Source: a virus (lineage: Duplodnaviria > Caudoviricetes). Taken from it: a stretch of DNA of 34,564 nucleotides. The notes below the pieces were generated by a model. It worked only from the letters and a program-made list of their open reading frames with translations, was not told the origin of the DNA and did not search any database. The stretch spans positions 1 to 34,564 of the IMG/VR virus record IMGVR_UViG_3300037722_000464; one strand, 5' to 3'. The position numbers and the translations under genes are program-made. Numbering within the stretch: the stretch's first letter is position 1; every line of letters starts with the position of its first letter. Positions 1 through 34,564 of this stretch are shown here, piece after piece.

Positions 1-118
1 TGCCGTTTCACAACAAGAAATTGCAACAAAATACATGGCAATAAAGGCAGAGTTGAGAGAATACACCCGGCGCGCATCACTATCTGAACTTGACGAGATG
101 TTGAATAATCTTGTTTAG
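1..118 (+). CDS. 3' part of a small cassette-borne ORF (AVSQQEIATKYMAIKAELREYTRRASLSELDEMLNNLV*)
   Basis: Frame is open from 2 to TAG at 116-118, 1 nt before the attC-like R box GCCTAAC (120-126). It is in frame with the ATG at 34560 if the window ends are joined. Confidence 0.55.
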   Translation, partial: AVSQQEIATKYMAIKAELREYTRRASLSELDEMLNNLV

Positions 119-119
119 C

Positions 120-224
120 GCCTAACGATCTTAGATCAGCGCACGGCGACGAGCCATGCGAGGATCGGCGAATTGAACGAGGAGCACAGCCGCCAATTCC
201 GTTCGCTGAATTGGATGGTTAGGG
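120..224 (-). other. attC-like recombination site A
   Basis: GCCTAAC (120-126) to GTTAGGG (218-224). Inner arms TCAGCG 136-141/CGCTGA 204-209 and ACGG 143-146/CCGT 199-202. 5-nt spacer GGATG before GTT. Intergenic; the most degenerate of the three sites. Confidence 0.72.
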
Positions 225-438
225 TGCGGGAGGTACGTATGGCAGAGTCTAGCTGGAAACCTTTCCCTGAAAGTTGCCCCGAGTGTGGGGAGGATTCGGA
301 GATATTCACAACCTCAGGCGGATATGGGTATGACGCCGACCCGGTAAGGTGCGCCGATCCTTCTTGCGGGGCAAGGGGGTACTGGTCGGGGGATTCAGAA
401 TCCGAGTTTTATGTTAATTGGGACGTTTAACACCCTAA
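126..438. mobile_element. Putative gene cassette 2 (site A body plus Zn-ribbon ORF)
   Basis: GTTAGGGTG (218-226) is the exact reverse complement of CACCCTAAC (431-439), as expected if the unit circularises at AA/C. Confidence 0.75.
239..430 (+). CDS. Small Cys-rich Zn-ribbon protein (63 aa), cassette-borne
   Basis: GGAGG at 229-233 then ATG 239. CPEC...CADPSC motifs. Stop immediately before site B. Confidence 0.7.
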   Translation: MAESSWKPFPESCPECGEDSEIFTTSGGYGYDADPVRCADPSCGARGYWSGDSESEFYVNWDV

Positions 439-517
439 CGGTTGAAGTAACCGGCGGCGTCGTGCTGCAACTACGAAGCACTCGTGTGGACCCGTCCGGT
501 TCACTGATGGGTTCGTT
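433..517 (-). other. attC-like recombination site B
   Basis: CCCTAAC (433-439), 6 nt, AGTAACC (446-452) ... GGTTCACT (498-505), 5 nt, GTTCGTT (511-517). The hairpin leaves C502 and T495 unpaired on the + strand, the canonical attC geometry when read on the minus strand. Confidence 0.82.
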
Positions 518-553
518 TTTGCCATACCCGCAAGACCCCGCTTTTGCAAACTG

Positions 554-1468
554 ATGGAGGATCAATTGAATGAGCTGGCACTTTTCGCAGGCGCTGGAGG
601 CGGAATACTTGGAGGCAAACTGCTTGGATGGAGAACCGTTTGCGCCGTGGAAGTCAACACCTTTTGCGCCCGACGACTCATGCAGCGCCAAAATGAAGGA
701 CACCTGCCACCGTTCCCCATTTGGGACGATGTTCGTACCTTCGATGGACACCCCTGGCAAGGAGTTGTTGACGTTGTTTCTGGTGGCTTTCCCTGCCAGG
801 ACATCAGCGCCGCCGGGACGGGAAACGGGATTGACGGGGAACGGTCTGGATTGTGGCTGGAAATGGCGCGAATCATCGGTGAGGTACGACCTCGCTTTGC
901 GTTTGTGGAAAACTCGCCAATGCTCACTTCTCGGGGACTCGGAACCGTACTCGGAGACCTGGCCTCGATGGGGTACGATGCGGAATGGGGAGTGTTGGGA
1001 GCGGCAGATGTGGGCGCGAATCACCAGAGAGACAGGATTTGGATTGTGGCCTACCGTGACTGTTTGCGGAAACTACAATCGAAAAGGTTTGAGCAAGAAC
1101 AGCGGGGACGGATTGGCGACGGCGGTGGCATATTGGCCGACTCCAACGAAATCGGACGGCGGCGGCGGGCCGGGATGTTCGGGCAGGGAGGGCGGATTGA
1201 ACCTAAGAACGGCTGTAACGAAATGGCCGACGCCGACTGTCAACGACTCAAAAAACAGCACCTTGCCACCATCTCAAGTGAAACACGACAACATCTCTGG
1301 GGCGCTGCTGCGTATGGGCGAGAAAACTGGTGGGCAACTGAACCCGGAGTGGGTCGAGTGGCTCATGGGGTGGCCTCTCGGGTGGACCGACTGCAAGCCC
1401 TTGGAAACGGACAGGTGCCACAGTGCCATGCCGAGGCTTGGCAACGCCTGATTTTGCGGGGTAGTTAA
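554..1468 (+). CDS. DNA (cytosine-5) methyltransferase, alpha polypeptide (probable start TTG 566)
   Basis: Motif I LFAGAGG, IV SGGFPCQD, VI ENS, VIII HQRDRIWIV, X RLQALGNGQVP. No motif IX in this frame. SD GGAGG at 556-560. Confidence 0.92.
   Translation: MEDQLNELALFAGAGGGILGGKLLGWRTVCAVEVNTFCARRLMQRQNEGHLPPFPIWDDVRTFDGHPWQGVVDVVSGGFPCQDISAAGTGNGIDGERSGLWLEMARIIGEVRPRFAFVENSPMLTSRGLGTVLGDLASMGYDAEWGVLGAADVGANHQRDRIWIVAYRDCLRKLQSKRFEQEQRGRIGDGGGILADSNEIGRRRRAGMFGQGGRIEPKNGCNEMADADCQRLKKQHLATISSETRQHLWGAAAYGRENWWATEPGVGRVAHGVASRVDRLQALGNGQVPQCHAEAWQRLILRGS
570..1451 (+). CDS. Overlapping alternative-frame ORF, probable methyltransferase beta polypeptide
   Basis: 293 codons open inside the MTase gene, with three WPT(P/V) repeats and the motif IX-like GQLNPEWVEWLMGWPLGWT. 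Confidence 0.7.
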   Translation: MSWHFSQALEAEYLEANCLDGEPFAPWKSTPFAPDDSCSAKMKDTCHRSPFGTMFVPSMDTPGKELLTLFLVAFPARTSAPPGRETGLTGNGLDCGWKWRESSVRYDLALRLWKTRQCSLLGDSEPYSETWPRWGTMRNGECWERQMWARITRETGFGLWPTVTVCGNYNRKGLSKNSGDGLATAVAYWPTPTKSDGGGGPGCSGREGGLNLRTAVTKWPTPTVNDSKNSTLPPSQVKHDNISGALLRMGEKTGGQLNPEWVEWLMGWPLGWTDCKPLETDRCHSAMPRLGNA

Positions 1469-1480
1469 GCGGGCGGCAAA

Positions 1481-1502
1481 AACGAACCTTTGATTAGACG
1501 GA
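1481..1502 (-). other. attI-like simple site heading the cassette array
   Basis: Minus strand reads TCC-GTCTAAT-CAAAG-GTTCGTT (L box, 5 nt, R box) with no partner hairpin arm. Resembles, from memory, the attI1 CCCTAAA-ACAAA-GTT and attI2 CTAAT-AAAAT-GTT cores. Confidence 0.6.
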
Positions 1503-4643: not shown

Positions 4644-5509
4644 AGCGTATCCTTTGCAACCCGTTTCCCCTCCACGTCGACCTGCTCCCCCGCGAGGGAG
4701 AAGCCGCTGCCGCAGCCGGTGCCGCCGCCGGTGAAGGTGATCAGGCCGCCGCTGCTGCTGCCGCCGAGAAGGCCCCCGGGGTCGCGGGCGGTCTGCTGAC
4801 CGGCAAAACCGCCGAAGGCAAACCGGCCGAAGTCAAGGGCGACGAATTCACCATTCCCGAGAAGTTTCTCGTGAACGGTGAAGACGGCAAACCCAACTGG
4901 GAAGCCATTGCCCGTAAGGCGATTCCCAGCTATGGCAACTTGGAAAAGCGCTTCGGCTCGGGGGACGCTCCTCCCGAGACGCCCGACAAGTACAAGATCG
5001 AGAATTATCTTCCCGAAGGGTACGAGCGCAACCCCGAGGGCGAGAAAAAGGTTTTGGCCTCCCTCCATTCGGTCGGGCTGAACAACAAACAGGCGCAAGG
5101 GGTGCTGGCGCTGTACGGCAGTCTCCTCGGCGAAGGGCTGGCCGCTGAAAAGGCCAGCATGGAAAAAGCCTCCGCAGAGCTCAAGACCGAATGGGGCGCC
5201 GACTATGACAAGCGGATGAGCCGCAGCAACTTTGCCCTGTCTCAGGCGCCCGAGACGCTGACCAAGGCCATCACCACCAAGCCGCACCTGATGAACGATC
5301 CCGACGTGATCCGGCTTCTCGATTTCGTCGGAGAGCAGTTCGAAGACGACAAGAGCGCCAACGAAATGGGCGCCGGAGAGATCGAGGATGTGGACCAGCT
5401 GCGCCGCAGCCCCGCCTACATGGATGAGAAACACGCCGACCACGGCCGCGTGGTGGCCAAGGTGAACGCGGCCTATGCCCGCGGCTACAAGGACAAGACC
5501 GGGGGTTAA
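4640..5509 (+). CDS. Capsid scaffolding/assembly protein
   Basis: Ala-rich N-terminus, IPEKF, YGNLEKRFG..PETPDKY, LKTEWGADYD, C-terminal AY.D.KHADH..VV. Immediately upstream of the capsid gene. Confidence 0.85.
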   Translation: MKRILCNPFPLHVDLLPREGEAAAAAGAAAGEGDQAAAAAAAEKAPGVAGGLLTGKTAEGKPAEVKGDEFTIPEKFLVNGEDGKPNWEAIARKAIPSYGNLEKRFGSGDAPPETPDKYKIENYLPEGYERNPEGEKKVLASLHSVGLNNKQAQGVLALYGSLLGEGLAAEKASMEKASAELKTEWGADYDKRMSRSNFALSQAPETLTKAITTKPHLMNDPDVIRLLDFVGEQFEDDKSANEMGAGEIEDVDQLRRSPAYMDEKHADHGRVVAKVNAAYARGYKDKTGG

Positions 5510-5716: not shown

Positions 5717-6649
5717 ATGAAAATTCTTCTGGCCACCCTGTTCCCGCTTCACCTCGACCTCCTCCCCCGCGACGACAGCACCATCCCCAACCACTACGTC
5801 ATCAAGTACGACGACGACGTGCGCCTGGTCGCCCAGCAGAAAAAGTCCCGCCTCGAAGAGACGGTGACCCCGCATCCCGGGATCGTCGGCGCCAGCAAGG
5901 CCATCGACCGCTACGGCGACACCGAAGCCGAGGAGGTCATTGACCGCCACGGCGACACCAACACCTCCGAAGGGGCGCACCTGCGGCGCTACATCGACCT
6001 GCGCGATTACGACAAGGCGACCCTCCTCGACCAGGCCGACACCATCAAGATCCTCGACAATCCGAACAACCGGTATGTCCAGGGATCGGTGGCGGCCATG
6101 AACCGCAAGAAGGATAAGGTCATCATCGCCGCCCTGAACGGCTCGGCCCGCAACGTCGACAACACCCTGGTGGAGCTCCCCGCCGGTCAGATCATCCTCG
6201 ACGGCGGCACCAACATCTCCATGGCCAAGATCCGCGGCGCCATCGAGATTCTGAACGCCAACGAGGCCGACGCTCCCGAAGAAGAGGGCGCCCTGCGCAC
6301 CTTTGTCTATACGGCAAAGCAGCTCACCATTCTCATGGCCGATGCGACCCTGACTTCCGCCGACTACAACACCCTCAAGGCGCTGCAGGACTACACCATG
6401 AGCAACCGCATGTTCATGGGGCTGCTCTGGAAGCGCGTCGAGTTTCTGCCCAAGGTCGGAGACATCCGCTCCTGCTTCATCTACGGCAAGAGCTACATGG
6501 GCCTCGGCACCGGTCGCGACATCCAGAACAAAGTCGCCGAGCGTCCCGACAAGCGGCATGCCATCCAGACCTACACCCAGATGTCCATCGGTGCCGTGCG
6601 CATCGAGGACGAAGGCGTGGTCGAGATCAAGGTGGACGAAACCGCCTAA
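5717..6649 (+). CDS. Major capsid protein
   Basis: AAGGAG SD then ATG 5717 (the ORF-track start at 5585 lies in the RNA leader). V..Y...V.L.AQQKKSRL, AAMNRKKDKVII, GAVRIEDEGVVEI. Followed by a hairpin. Confidence 0.9.
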   Translation: MKILLATLFPLHLDLLPRDDSTIPNHYVIKYDDDVRLVAQQKKSRLEETVTPHPGIVGASKAIDRYGDTEAEEVIDRHGDTNTSEGAHLRRYIDLRDYDKATLLDQADTIKILDNPNNRYVQGSVAAMNRKKDKVIIAALNGSARNVDNTLVELPAGQIILDGGTNISMAKIRGAIEILNANEADAPEEEGALRTFVYTAKQLTILMADATLTSADYNTLKALQDYTMSNRMFMGLLWKRVEFLPKVGDIRSCFIYGKSYMGLGTGRDIQNKVAERPDKRHAIQTYTQMSIGAVRIEDEGVVEIKVDETA

Positions 6650-20271: not shown

Positions 20272-21921
20272 ATGTCCCGCGCCAAGGTCTCCTTCCCTGC
20301 TTTTTATCTCAAGCAGGCCCAGCTCTCCGGGTGGGCCGTGCCCGACGAGCATATGGAGGTGTGCGACTGGCTTGAAGGCGGCCGCAAGGGGCGGGTCGGA
20401 GTGCTCAAGGCGTTTCGCGGTTTTTCAAAGAGCACCATCGCCGGGCGCTATGTGCCGTGGAAGCTGCGGCATTCGCCGACCTGGCGCTTTCAACTCCTCT
20501 CGGCCACCGATACGGACGGCGCCAAGATGTCGAGAGACAGCCGCAACGTCATCGACCGGCACCCCTGGTGCCAGGGGATGCGCCCCGAGCGGTTCGGCCT
20601 GTGGAAAACGCACCGCTACGAGGTCACCGGCGCCGACGATCCGCGCAATCCGTCCGTCTCGGCCTATGGCGTCATGTCCAACATCACCGGCGGCCGCGCG
20701 GATGAGTGCATCAATGACGACGTGGAGGTTCCGAAGACGATCCGCACCCCGGCGCTGCGCGAGGCGCTGCGGGAACGGCTCTCCGAGCAGACCCATATCA
20801 TCGTCCCCGGGGGGAAGATCCTCTATATCGGCACCGACCACTGTCTGGATTCGATCTACAAGGAGCAGATCGAGGACGGCGCCGACCTGCTGGAAATCTC
20901 GCTCTTTCGCAAGGAGGTCACCCACATCGCCAAGACGGTGGCGCGGGACTTCCCTTTTTCCTGGCGGATTCAGACCGAAAACGATTTGTTCATTGTCGTC
21001 GGCGGCACCCGCCCCCGGTTGCTCGACCGGGAAGAATATCTGGTGGAAGGGGTGCGCGATTACCGCGGCGGGCATGTACGGTTGCGCAAGGCCTTAAACC
21101 CCGAGGAGCGCATCAGCATCTACGCCGGGCACGTCTGGCCGGAGCGCTTCACGCGCGACGAGGTGAAATTCCGCGTCGGGCGCTGCCGCAGCTGGGGCGC
21201 CTGGGACAGTCAATATCAGCTGCACGCCGCCCAGATCGGCGACGTGCGCCTGGACCCGGCCCGCATGATCGAGTACAGCCCCGAGCCGGAATTCCGTGAA
21301 GTGAATGGAGAACTCACCTGCTGGCTCAACGGGATCCGCATGGCCGGAGTCTCCACGGTCTGGGACTGCAGCCTGGGCAAGGTCAAGAGCGACACCAGCG
21401 CCTTGGTGGTCATCTTCACCGACAGCAGGGGTTATCTCTTCTGGCATGTCGCCGAGGCACTGACCGGCGACATCGATGAGCAGTGCCTGTCCGTGGTCAA
21501 AACGGTGAAGCGCCTGCGCCTGCCTGCGGTCACGGTCAAAACCGCATCCCTCGGCGGCTTTGTGCCGACGATCCTCAAGGGGCACCTGCAGCGCGCCGGG
21601 GTGCCCTGCGGGGTGATCGAGCAGCAGGAGCGCGTCAACAAGAACGTGCGCATTCTCGACGCGCTCGAGCCGCCCCTTTCTGGGCTCTTTCTCTATGCGC
21701 ACCAGTCCGTCAAGCAGGGACCGGCCGCGGTGCAGATGGGGCAATGGAATCCGAAGATCCTCGATCAGCCCGACGACTACCTGGACGCCGCCGCCGGGGC
21801 CGTCGCTGAAACCCCGATCCGCATCGGCAAAATCCCCGGCGGTGTGGTCGAGCCGCCCCGCGACGAATGGCGCCCCAATCAGCAGGGTAATTTTGAAGTG
21901 CAAGTGGACTATGGCCGATAA
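20272..21921 (+). CDS. terL: Terminase large subunit
   Basis: Walker A AFRGFSKST, ITGGRADECINDDVE (Walker B), YIGT coupling motif, nuclease WDCS..SD and DDYLDA. Confidence 0.92.
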   Translation: MSRAKVSFPAFYLKQAQLSGWAVPDEHMEVCDWLEGGRKGRVGVLKAFRGFSKSTIAGRYVPWKLRHSPTWRFQLLSATDTDGAKMSRDSRNVIDRHPWCQGMRPERFGLWKTHRYEVTGADDPRNPSVSAYGVMSNITGGRADECINDDVEVPKTIRTPALREALRERLSEQTHIIVPGGKILYIGTDHCLDSIYKEQIEDGADLLEISLFRKEVTHIAKTVARDFPFSWRIQTENDLFIVVGGTRPRLLDREEYLVEGVRDYRGGHVRLRKALNPEERISIYAGHVWPERFTRDEVKFRVGRCRSWGAWDSQYQLHAAQIGDVRLDPARMIEYSPEPEFREVNGELTCWLNGIRMAGVSTVWDCSLGKVKSDTSALVVIFTDSRGYLFWHVAEALTGDIDEQCLSVVKTVKRLRLPAVTVKTASLGGFVPTILKGHLQRAGVPCGVIEQQERVNKNVRILDALEPPLSGLFLYAHQSVKQGPAAVQMGQWNPKILDQPDDYLDAAAGAVAETPIRIGKIPGGVVEPPRDEWRPNQQGNFEVQVDYGR

Positions 21922-25593: not shown

Positions 25594-25639
25594 TGGTGCC
25601 CAGAGACGGAATCGAACCGCCGACACGAGGATTTTCAGT
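25594..25639 (-). other. attP: attP core: 3' half of tRNA-Phe(GAA)
   Basis: Minus strand ACTGAAAATCCTCGTGTCGGCGGTTCGATTCCGTCTCTGGGCACCA contains the anticodon loop, T arm, acceptor 3' strand and CCA. The 5' half is absent; abuts int. Confidence 0.92.
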
Positions 25640-26840
25640 TTTTAGTTTGTTTCTTGGGGGCTGGTGGGGTGGCGGGTTTGCGGGGGGTTGGGTTGTCCCG
25701 GGTGGACTTTGGTTCTACGAAGGCGCTGAATTTTTCGGATTCGGTTTGGAGGAAGGGGGCCATGTGGGTGTAAATCTCGGTGGTCTTGATGGTGGAGTGG
25801 CCCATGATTTCTTGTACGGTGCGCAGGTTCATGCCGGAGGCTACGGCGTGGGTGCCGAAGTTGTGGCGCAGGAGGTGATGATAGACCCGCTTGTCGATGC
25901 CGGCTTTTTCGGCGGCTCGGAGTAGGGCCTTGCGGATGCTGTACCAGGGTTTGCCGGTGTGGGGATTGATGCAGAGGTGGCCGGTTCGGTTGGTCTGAAG
26001 GGCGTCTTCGAGGGACTGGCGCAGCCGGCGGGTGGTGATCGGGACGATTCGCTCTTTGTCGCCTTTGCCGCGGACGTAGAGGAGCCCGAAACCCAGGTCG
26101 ACATCCTGGGCGCGGATGCCGAGGTATTTGCCGCCGCCGAGGACTTCGGCGCGGCGCAGACCGCCGTCGTTGTAGAGGAGGAAGGTCAGGCGGTACTGCG
26201 GTTCGAGATGTTCGAGGAGGGTGTTGACTTCATCGGGGTGCAGCGGTCGGGCCCGGGCGGCGGTGGTTTGTTTGACGGGGAAGAGTTTGACGCGGATCGG
26301 GTCGCAGTAGCGGTGCTCGGCGGCCCACTTGAAAAAGCCGGAGAGGTAGGAGAGTTCTTTGTTGATGGTGCGCTTGCTGATCGTGCGGGTCTGTTCGGTG
26401 TGGCGCAGGGCATAGGCGGTGTCGCTTTCGCCCTTGCGGCGCTTGGGCTCGACGCGGGTGGCCAGGCGCTGGCCCTTGTATTGTTCGATGAGGCTGGGGG
26501 TGATTTCGGCGAGGTAGAGAGGCCCGAAGAAGGGGACCAGGCGCACCAGGGAGCAGTTGAGATCTTTGCAGGTGCTGGCTTCGTGATCGTTGGCGTATTC
26601 CTGTTTCCAGTCGCCGAGCAGATCATAGACCTTGGGATTGATCATCGACACCGGTTCACGCCGGGAGAGACGGCGGAGCTCCATCTCGAGGGCGAGGGCT
26701 TCGGCCTTGGTGTGCGGGTGGTCGACGCTGCCGAATTCGCGGCGGAGCCGGGGCCCTTTGCGTCCCTGGGGGCGGTAGTCGATGATCCAGACGCCGGGGA
26801 TGCTTTCGCCGGCTGGATCGGTTTTGGGTTTGACAGCCAT
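25635..26840 (-). CDS. int: Tyrosine integrase
   Basis: GLRRAE, GKGDKER, HLLRH, MGHS..TTEIYTH catalytic residues; N-terminal arm-binding-like domain; ends in attP. Confidence 0.95.
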   Translation of the reverse strand: MAVKPKTDPAGESIPGVWIIDYRPQGRKGPRLRREFGSVDHPHTKAEALALEMELRRLSRREPVSMINPKVYDLLGDWKQEYANDHEASTCKDLNCSLVRLVPFFGPLYLAEITPSLIEQYKGQRLATRVEPKRRKGESDTAYALRHTEQTRTISKRTINKELSYLSGFFKWAAEHRYCDPIRVKLFPVKQTTAARARPLHPDEVNTLLEHLEPQYRLTFLLYNDGGLRRAEVLGGGKYLGIRAQDVDLGFGLLYVRGKGDKERIVPITTRRLRQSLEDALQTNRTGHLCINPHTGKPWYSIRKALLRAAEKAGIDKRVYHHLLRHNFGTHAVASGMNLRTVQEIMGHSTIKTTEIYTHMAPFLQTESEKFSAFVEPKSTRDNPTPRKPATPPAPKKQTKN

Positions 26841-31502: not shown

Positions 31503-32582
31503 ATGGCGGCGATTCGGCGGGATGTGCTTAAAAACGGCAAGTCGCGATATCGGGTGCGGGTGCGGGTGAACGGCGGCTATCGCAGCGCCACGAAGCCGAA
31601 CCGGGCCGAGGCGCGGCGCTGGGCTGATGCAACGGAGCGGGAGCTGACGCTGAACCGGCTGTCTCCGTTGGGGCAGTCGGAGATTCTGACCTTCGGCGAC
31701 CTGGTGGATAAGTACCGCCGCCAGGTGCTGCCTTACAAGAAGTGGCGCACTCAGCGGCAGCAGGAGCAACAGCTGCGGTGGTGGGTGGAGTACCTGGGGG
31801 CCGACCGGCCGCTGGTGCGTATCTCGCCGCCGGTGATCAGCGACGCCAAGGAGGCGCTGCTGCCCTTGTCGCCCGGCACGGTCAATCGTTATCTGGCGAT
31901 TCTTTCGCACCTCTTTGCGCAGGCGGTGAAGGAATGGCGCTGTGTCGACAGCAATCCGGTGGCGTCTGTCGGTCGGTTGCCGGAACCTCGAGGGCGGACG
32001 CGCTGGCTGAAGAGCGACGAGCGGCGCCGGTTGATGGACGCCTGCAATGCCACGGATAACCGGTTTTTGGGGACGATTGTTACTCTGGGACTGGCAACGG
32101 GTGCGCGGTCGTCGGAGATTCGGCGGATGCGCTGGGACATGCTCGATCTGTTCCGCTCGATGATGGTCGATGGACGGCAGGTGGAGGTGGGCCGGTATTA
32201 CCTCGAGGAGACGAAGACCGACGAGGCCCGGGCGCTGATCATCTTCGGCGAGGCGCTGCAGCTGATGCGCCGTTTGTATCGAGAGCGTCGCCCGGGGTCG
32301 GTCTGGTGTTTCCCTTCGAGTCGCGAGACGCACCAGCCGATTGATTTTCGGTATGCCTGGGAGCAGGCGCTGATTGCCTCGCGGGTCGAGAACTTCTGTT
32401 TTCATGACTTGCGGCACTCGGCGGCCAGTTATCTGGGGGAGCAGGGGGCGTCTCTGGCACAGATCGGGGCGATCCTCGGTCACAAGACGGCCAACACGAC
32501 GAAGCGCTACACCCATTTTACGAGCAGCGGCACGGAACATCTGGTGGCAAAGATGAACGGTTCTATTTTCGGGAGGGTTTGA
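31503..32582 (+). CDS. Second tyrosine recombinase (phage integrase/Rci-like)
   Basis: TGARSSEI, ETKT, FHDLRH, LGHKT..TKRYTH all intact; N-terminal YRVRVR...EARRWA...E. Confidence 0.93.
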   Translation: MAAIRRDVLKNGKSRYRVRVRVNGGYRSATKPNRAEARRWADATERELTLNRLSPLGQSEILTFGDLVDKYRRQVLPYKKWRTQRQQEQQLRWWVEYLGADRPLVRISPPVISDAKEALLPLSPGTVNRYLAILSHLFAQAVKEWRCVDSNPVASVGRLPEPRGRTRWLKSDERRRLMDACNATDNRFLGTIVTLGLATGARSSEIRRMRWDMLDLFRSMMVDGRQVEVGRYYLEETKTDEARALIIFGEALQLMRRLYRERRPGSVWCFPSSRETHQPIDFRYAWEQALIASRVENFCFHDLRHSAASYLGEQGASLAQIGAILGHKTANTTKRYTHFTSSGTEHLVAKMNGSIFGRV

Positions 32583-34028: not shown

Positions 34029-34451
34029 GTGGAACAACTTGCGATAGCGATAACAGGGTGCGTTGCGATCTGGCTGGCAAACGATCAGCGCCAACCGTGG
34101 CGCAAGTGGGCCAGCGTATTCGGGTTGGTTGGACAACCGTTCTGGTTCTATTCGGCGTTTATAGCTGAACAGTGGGGGATTCTGGCGTTGTCGTTTGTTT
34201 ATACGGCAGCGTGGGTGCGGGGGCTGGCGGCATTTATTACGGAGGATGTTGTGGAAAAGACAAAGAGACCTTACATGGACATGGCTGGGAACAAATGCAC
34301 CGTCTCGGAAATGATGAAGGCTGAACCGGAATGGGCCATGAGCCGGGTTTTGTTGGCACAAGAGTATGAAGATCTTATTTTTAAAATCAATCGGACGATG
34401 GGGCCGGATTGGGTTCAGCGAATGGCAAATTGTTTGCCTGATATTGGGTAA
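34029..34451 (+). CDS. Membrane protein (hydrophobic N-terminal half) fused to a small soluble domain
   Basis: Hydrophobic residues 1-70 (GLVGQPFWFY...QWG). Stop TAA 34449-51 lies inside the R box of site D. Confidence 0.75.
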   Translation: MEQLAIAITGCVAIWLANDQRQPWRKWASVFGLVGQPFWFYSAFIAEQWGILALSFVYTAAWVRGLAAFITEDVVEKTKRPYMDMAGNKCTVSEMMKAEPEWAMSRVLLAQEYEDLIFKINRTMGPDWVQRMANCLPDIG

Positions 34452-34531
34452 CGCCACTGATAACCGGTGGCGACGGATGGAACGGCAAGGGCACTGCGAC
34501 CCATTCCATCCGGTTGATCAGATTGTTAGAA
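34446..34531 (-). other. attC-like recombination site D
   Basis: GGGTAAC, 6 nt, GATAACC-GG-TGG ... CCA-T-CC-GGTTGATC, 5 nt, GTTAGAA. The fold leaves G34516 and T34509 extrahelical on the + strand, the canonical G and T. Confidence 0.87.
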
Positions 34532-34564
34532 ACACAAACCACAACAGGAGAATACGAAGATGAC

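Follow-up and report, generated by a model that had tools for sequence, protein, structure and literature searches.

Integron attC sites are described by Bouvier et al. 2009 (PMC2727003) as carrying an unpaired G and an unpaired T on the bottom strand's R''-L'' arm, and the two ends of a cassette usually pair over 9-11 bases. Arrays with two or more attC sites lying on the same strand within 4 kb, and with no nearby intI, are CALINs as defined by Cury et al. 2016 (PMC4889954), who list the origin of CALINs as open and state that attI cannot be searched for in most integrons. Phage CALINs with methyltransferases were described by Qi et al. 2023 (PMC9892861), together with recombination of phage attC sites by IntI1. 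The locus analysed here resembles these phage CALINs in having at least two attC sites, no intI, and methyltransferase cargo, and it fits the CALIN definition. However, the main text of Qi et al. reports neither a systematic reversal of the genes nor a conserved integrase-less attI with a small gene. A literature search, which had most subscription papers outside its reach, found no paper on reversed phage cassettes or on the 104-residue module described below; the reversed, integrase-less arrangement is thus a variant not found in print.

The window, i.e. the whole stretch of DNA analysed, is an entire virus record of 34,564 bases. Its genes include those for a head-tail adaptor, major head and tail proteins, terminase, endolysin, and integrase, as well as a repressor-like gene, and by this gene content it is a temperate, podophage-like genome. 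The terminase gene (20272-21921) lies between virion and tail genes and matches PHROG 38 in part only (positions 290-727 of 760). No terminal repeat of at least 5 bases was found in the contig; it is probably circular, as judged from a 40-codon ORF on the + strand which crosses its ends (34560 to 118). From about 27.9 kb, across the contig ends and on to 24.9 kb, the genes predicted are on the + strand. Two tyrosine recombinases are encoded, which score 100.9 and 33.7 bits against the IntI model TIGR02249 (cut-off 265), and the window is not a full integron, in which intI adjoins the array. The integrase occupies 25635-26840. A stretch adjoining its stop codon (25597-25640) resembles, by eye, the reverse complement of the 3' half of tRNA-Phe and is presumably a candidate attP; ARAGORN and Rfam were both blank there. 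The second tyrosine recombinase (31503-32582, + strand) lies within the rightward gene run, about 2 kb from the nearest attC site (site Z), and has no counterpart in five related records except a weak match to an intI fragment.

Three attC sites, annotated on the - strand, were recognised: site Z (34446-34531), site A (120-224), and site B (433-517). In each of them a hairpin that has an L stem and spacers of 5-7 bases links the AAC core to the GTT core, and unpaired bases lie on the R''-L'' arm in all three. These sit on the + strand's 3' arm throughout and are G and T in site Z, C and T in site B, and A in site A; site Z therefore starts with the usual unpaired G, from which the other two depart. 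Since the unpaired G and T of site Z lie on the 3' arm of the + strand, that strand is the recombining (bottom) strand. Compared with the usual attC layout, site A lacks one base. Relatives of site Z were found in loci L112 and L121, and relatives of site A in L111, L118, and L121. With the integron attC sites described by Bouvier et al. (PMC2727003) and Nivina et al. 2016 (PMC5027507), the window shares the AAC/GTT core, the L stem with two unpaired bases, the unpaired spacer, the hybrid nature of sites within an array, and end pairing over more than 7 bases.

Sites Z, A, and B scored 26, 21, and 24 with a site descriptor; the opposite strand gave 0, as did shuffled versions of the region. 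The descriptor is our own rather than IntegronFinder and misses some sites; at its strict threshold it returns no sites in L110, L111, L120, and L129. Intrinsic terminators and known structured RNAs were considered as other identities of the hairpins. Five terminator-like matches occur in positions 1-2400, none of them at site A, B, or C (site C being the array end, see below), and Rfam gave no match at gathering score in the window. The initial annotation had argued that the hairpins are not terminators or REP-like repeats, and this agrees both with the terminator scan, which flags neither site A nor site B, and with their attC layout, which matches that of class 1 integron sites run through the same descriptor.

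The initial annotation started from the observation that boxes on either side of each gene are perfectly complementary while the outer boxes within a site match poorly. At 218-226/431-439 and 511-523/1475-1487 the pairing is indeed exact, over 9 and 13 bases, and the outer boxes within a site pair less (3 bases in site B, the poor match that the annotation had pointed out, and 6 in site A). Perfect pairing across each gene holds for two of the three cassettes; in the third unit, which crosses the contig ends (34452-125), the ends pair over only 5 bases. Given GTT and AAC, the chance of the extra 6 bases is about 2.6e-4 and that of the extra 10 bases about 1e-6. There are 7567 pairs of GTT and AAC 150-1500 bases apart in the window, and seven of them reach at least 9 paired bases: the two already named, one nested in the 13-mer, and four unrelated ones elsewhere, with only the 13-mer exceeding 10. 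A 9-base pairing is therefore not rare by itself, and its weight comes from its position at the feet of two attC hairpins.

Folding with DNA parameters gave a probability of 0.001 for the AAC:GTT stem of site B in the array and 0.93 when the unit was circularised, whereas the stem of site A rose only from 0.978 to 0.985. In-silico circularisation, which the annotation had proposed for these two units, thus gave a large gain for site B and a slight one for site A. No gain was seen for site Z, which was added in the present work; the probability of its R box is about 0.01 (0.012 as a circle), and the site mostly folds into a different shape.

In 51 intervals from 15 phage loci, the median pairing was 9 bases across genes and 4 within sites (Wilcoxon p 3e-7, the loci not being independent). 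Ordinary integrons gave medians of 9 and 5 (25 intervals, four loci), and the end pairing of the two groups did not differ (p 0.75). Intervals longer than 1600 or shorter than 60 bases were skipped, and the control loci L136 and L140, which had no sites, were left out. Some of the surveyed intervals span missed sites, and the pairing counts are therefore lowered. The paired-end signature is a textbook, ordinary mark of integron gene cassettes and adds nothing alone. It shows that both ends of each unit come from a single site, which falls short of direct evidence for a circle. Longer pairing nearer attI, an age gradient suggested by the series 13, 9, 5 in the window and 12, 11, 10, 9, 8 in L112, was not supported (Spearman -0.07, p 0.6, 51 intervals). 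A 10-base end pairing in L010 has no adjoining attC and was taken as chance.

The crossover is predicted to lie between AA and C of AAC on the + strand, which would delimit three units, all annotated on the - strand. Cassette 1 (439-1486) comprises the body of site B and a C5 methyltransferase gene and adjoins the attI-like site. Cassette 2 (126-438) comprises the body of site A and a 63-codon gene. Cassette 3 would begin at 34452-34564, with the body of site Z and the start of the 40-codon ORF, and continue at 1-125, with the rest of that ORF (stop at 116-118 on the + strand) and the end box, a continuity which assumes a circular contig.

The two units named in the annotation, 126-438 and 439-1486, are borne out by related phages, which diverge exactly at AAC, and by the polarity of the sites. 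In four IMG/VR contigs (L110-L113, the last of which is that of L081), the match to the window sets in exactly with the AAC at 1485 and extends rightwards, and the sequence on the other side is different. Pairwise among these contigs and the window, 96-100 of 100 bases are alike to the right of AAC, against 3-10 of 25 on its left. Arrays of their own, again with paired ends, are present in L110-L112 (five ends in L112, with the lengths listed above), and L113 extends no more than 29 bases to the left of the site. A match to the window that starts at 1485 was likewise found in assembled contigs of runs X3 and X4. The left boundary of cassette 1 is marked by an X3 contig which holds site B and the start of the methyltransferase gene beside another left neighbour. 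For cassette 2, contigs of X1, X3, and X4 over the 63-codon gene end at 440, and for cassette 3 an X2 contig runs past 127 into a different hairpin arm. The standard boundaries, with each gene joined to the hairpin on its right (219-511), were rejected, as relatives diverge at AAC and the polarity of the bulges is opposite.

An exact DNA scan of IMG/VR and JGI found the window's own cassettes nowhere else, and a protein search with the 63-residue product gave only four weak partial matches. The same units beside different neighbours, which the annotation had suggested looking for, were accordingly seen only as the short loose ends of assembled contigs. Homologs of the methyltransferase occur both with and without such boundaries and beside different neighbours, rather than always with the same neighbours and no boundaries, the pattern the annotation had named as contrary to its reading. 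Among the contigs of the four runs, which drop rare forms, no circle or deletion joint is listed at the predicted points. Of the claim that the units were inserted as circles, then, the part that stands directly is that the ends of each unit belong to one site. Contig depth in run X1, which may be the sample that the window comes from, was 180 over the 63-codon gene, 101 over the 40-codon gene, and 12-14 over the phage backbone, as if the cassettes of window positions 1-440 were present in several genomes of that sample, contig depth being a weak measure.

Ordinary cassettes carry their gene on the top strand and have the attC downstream of it, a layout that the window cassettes do not share. 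The recombining-strand layout of the sites lies on the coding strand of all three genes, whereas the class 1 control (L139) has the same hairpin layout on the + strand and its genes, aadA2 and dfrA12, on the - strand. Because all three genes lie on the bottom strand, the window cassettes are a variant of integron cassettes and not plain members. The annotation did not mention that its unit boundaries imply such reversed genes, and it missed the third cassette and the attI-like end of the array. Over the 15 phage loci, 39 sites have this polarity on the + strand and 4 on the - strand, against 1.0 in shuffles. The longest ORF is on the + strand in 43 of the 51 phage intervals (5 on the - strand, 3 ties) and on the - strand in 21 of the 25 intervals of ordinary integrons. 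The wrong-way insertion described by Nivina et al. (PMC5027507) would flip gene and attC together; in the window, the attC sites keep their normal direction towards the attI-like site, and the reversal is confined to the genes.

At the head of the array lies site C (1485-1513, - strand), which consists of AAC, a 5-base spacer, an ATTAGAC box, and a TGCAAGGT box at 1506-1513; its predicted crossover is between 1486 and 1487. The crossover triplet, the spacer, and the L box at the array head are those of an attI, and the site is fixed while the cassettes vary. The attI1 of L139 and a Shewanella attI (L141, also quoted by Qi et al.) have the same crossover triplet, 5-base spacer, TTAG-type L box, and array-head position, but site C is without intI and has the TGCAAGGT box and a 104-residue gene instead. 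In another phage locus, L001 (also L125), a site identical to site C in 14 of 16 bases is followed by a full IntI on the same strand. The motif AAC-N4-ATTA is present in all six phage intI loci with upstream DNA (L125, L126, L127, and L129-L131); the spacer is 4 bases long at these intI-linked sites and 5 at site C. Four further IntI proteins tested were all above the cut-off, and the linked enzymes beside like sites elsewhere are IntI. In L121, an intI lacking its first half lies between the array end and a counterpart of the leader at 1823-1946 of the window (97.6%). No full IntI was found in the window or in nine related phage records, several of which are fragments. No sigma-70-like promoter, the one promoter type scanned, leads into the array on the - strand in 1-2400. 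A broken attC was rejected as the identity of site C, as the GTT after the box is not conserved. By its layout and these likenesses, the best reading of site C is that of an attI which lacks its integrase.

The 104-residue gene (1518-1832, + strand) belongs to no known family, lies in the slot where related phages have intI, and is tightly linked to site C. Ahead of the gene, AAC stands 17-18 bases before a [TC]GCAAGGT (TGCAAGGT) box in 22 of 24 distinct loci, a pattern drawn from the same loci in which it was counted, and T is found at the L-box position in all 22. In the other loci, the same pattern has one match in a total of 1.77 million bases. The 24 loci omit duplicates of one contig, L119 (which starts inside the gene), and L121 (which has half the gene). 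Even where protein identity falls to 35%, the site is still kept beside the gene. Among the loci are 15 genome-collection contigs, with labels including Geobacteraceae, Desulfobulbaceae, Pyrinomonadaceae, and Anaerolineaceae, that is, several phyla, the assignment of prophage contigs to MAGs being unreliable. No intI was found within the fetched stretch of the 14 genome-collection contigs checked, and six of ten tested MAGs holding the module have a full IntI elsewhere.

The 104-residue family has 247 representatives at E 0.001, and no Pfam family was found for 21 of its members. The many conserved arginines suggest that the protein may bind nucleic acid. Its structural model is confident (pLDDT 84), but neither Foldseek at E 0.001 nor VIA-align at Z of at least 5 gave a match; WGR and integrase arm-binding domains reached only Z 2.9-3.5, and the best Atlas value of 0.80 is a lead only. 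Longer matches to the protein carry unrelated domains, and a complex prediction with IntI scored 0.00, which carries no weight either way. The gene was also considered as a cassette itself and rejected, since relatives diverge inside its end, near 1813. In L121, at 4890-5167, a short shared stretch joins the start of a Mor-like gene to the latter half of the 104-residue gene; the fusion follows the truncated intI and is either a natural rearrangement or an assembly chimera.

The gene on the left of the site in L143-L145 has its start 25-35 bases away from GTT and is oriented normally, and no attC scored above the descriptor threshold there. Longer sites with three copies of the TGCAAGGT box occur in these loci (L143 572-644, L144 5929-6001, L145 2550-2622) and in L150 (about 5940-6000); two copies are inverted around 6 bases and two form a palindrome. 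The box form of the window looks like a collapse between direct copies of such a longer site. Genes left of the longer sites have the normal cassette direction, and in L144 and L150 they gave matches to models of defence systems (partial PD-Lambda-1/PDC-S57; PDC-M01A/B). L148 has two AAC...TGCAAGGT sites, at 5961 and 10087, 4.1 kb apart. In L155 (1-2060), near tRNA-Leu, a normal first cassette is followed by reversed phage-type ones with the same attC polarity.

Of the cargo genes, the C5 cytosine DNA methyltransferase (554-1468, + strand; PF00145) is reversed relative to its attC. A second open frame of 293 codons (570-1451, + strand) overlaps it and matches PHROG 1008, 'DNA methyltransferase' (E 2e-31); the overlapping frames presumably resemble two-frame C5 methyltransferases such as M.EcoHK31I. 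Two cysteine pairs are present in the 63-residue protein (239-430, + strand), which weakly matches restriction-alleviation Lar (PF14354, E 2.4e-4), though the match falls short of the curated cut-off. A 140-codon gene (34029-34451, + strand), the stop of which overlaps the left box of site Z, is possibly a distal cassette minus its attC or resident phage DNA; no partner box was found for it. Eight of 40 proteins scanned in relatives have Pfam matches, including Mom, MT-A70, C5 methyltransferase, and PAPS reductase (as a domain). Such cargo as could be identified (DNA methyltransferases, Mom, and a Lar-like protein) would plausibly protect against host restriction. Among the best 80 of 436 methyltransferase homologs, 78 were scorable and 77 of these have fewer than 8 exactly paired end bases, from which the family appears to be mostly an ordinary phage gene. 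Both the window and L001, which has the closest methyltransferase (70%), carry the gene in reversed cassettes with different ends; L001 is within the 77 only through one early mismatch, as its ends pair over 19 of 20 bases.

Given the end pairing, the attC layout and polarity, the divergence of relatives at AAC, and the likeness of site C to attI and to the sequence in front of phage intI genes, it is likely that in each cassette the paired boxes make up the two sides of an attC end stem belonging to that cassette, and that the units were inserted as circles by IntI at site C. IntI would cut between A and C of AAC on the + strand, and a unit would leave and return as a circle with its end stem fully paired, new units entering at site C (1486/1487). 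As no IntI is encoded in the window, the enzyme would likely act in trans, from a host chromosomal integron or a co-infecting intI-bearing phage. The genes were probably built reversed so as to share the direction of the phage's own rightward genes, and would then be readable from phage promoters.

The lack of IntI in the window, and of a full one in the nine related records, would also fit a frozen array, in which the cassettes entered while an ancestor still had intI and the present differences arose by homologous recombination between phages. L121 shows intI decaying in the same slot, like attC bodies recur across phages and offer homology, and no circle was seen in the contigs of the four runs. 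However, five contigs with a 96-100% identical site and gene have different DNA flush against AAC, namely four full first cassettes and one 29-base stub, and the 5-base spacer is the same in all five, whereas homologous crossovers with intI-bearing phages would import their different spacers. The site is moreover kept beside the 104-residue gene at the low protein identities given above, and we regard a frozen array as rather unlikely. Still less probable is that site C, instead of being an attI, is a hotspot for secondary (attG-type) insertion which lies in an ordinary phage gene's leader. IntI inserts cassettes at many genomic GWT sites, as described in the preprint of Loot et al., and the TGCAAGGT box has no counterpart at intI-linked sites and could be a control element of the gene. 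Yet attG sites have only a 3-base consensus, whereas at site C the AAC is fixed in its distance from the box and accompanied by the L-box T in 22 of the 24 loci counted above, and the core has the spacing of attI1 and the Shewanella attI as well as 14 of 16 bases of a phage intI-linked site.

That the phage moves the units with a tyrosine recombinase of its own other than IntI is the least credible of the explanations weighed, and there is very little room for it. The window does encode two such enzymes, and the second (31503-32582) is close to site Z; but four of five related records, one of them 91% complete, have no PF00589 recombinase at all, the fifth has only an intI fragment, and sites like site C precede true IntI genes. 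Insertion of the units by IntI at site C is thus the preferred reading.

A broader proposal is offered as speculation that we consider doubtful as a whole: the attI-like core, the TGCAAGGT box, and the 104-residue protein might together form an integrase-free gene-capture platform shared by phages and by chromosomes of several phyla. Within this same doubtful proposal, the small basic protein would bind the box and either let a borrowed IntI use the site or set the direction of insertion. Phages might stock the platform with their own anti-restriction genes as reversed cassettes, if the proposal holds at all. Chromosomes, equally conjecturally, would hold normal cassettes, defence-like in L144 and L150, and the array of L155 would mix both kinds.

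The setting suggests that integrase-less phages keep a working cassette dock and swap anti-restriction genes via bacterial integron machinery, and in that view the reversal of the genes suits the phages' own transcription. The methyltransferase, mostly an ordinary phage gene and yet a cassette here, bears on the unsolved question of how cassettes form. Since the short conserved site is tagged by a recognisable small gene, the question of CALIN origin becomes directly testable. If the platform proposal were true, it would explain concretely where many CALINs come from and offer a way to study how ordinary phage genes become cassettes.
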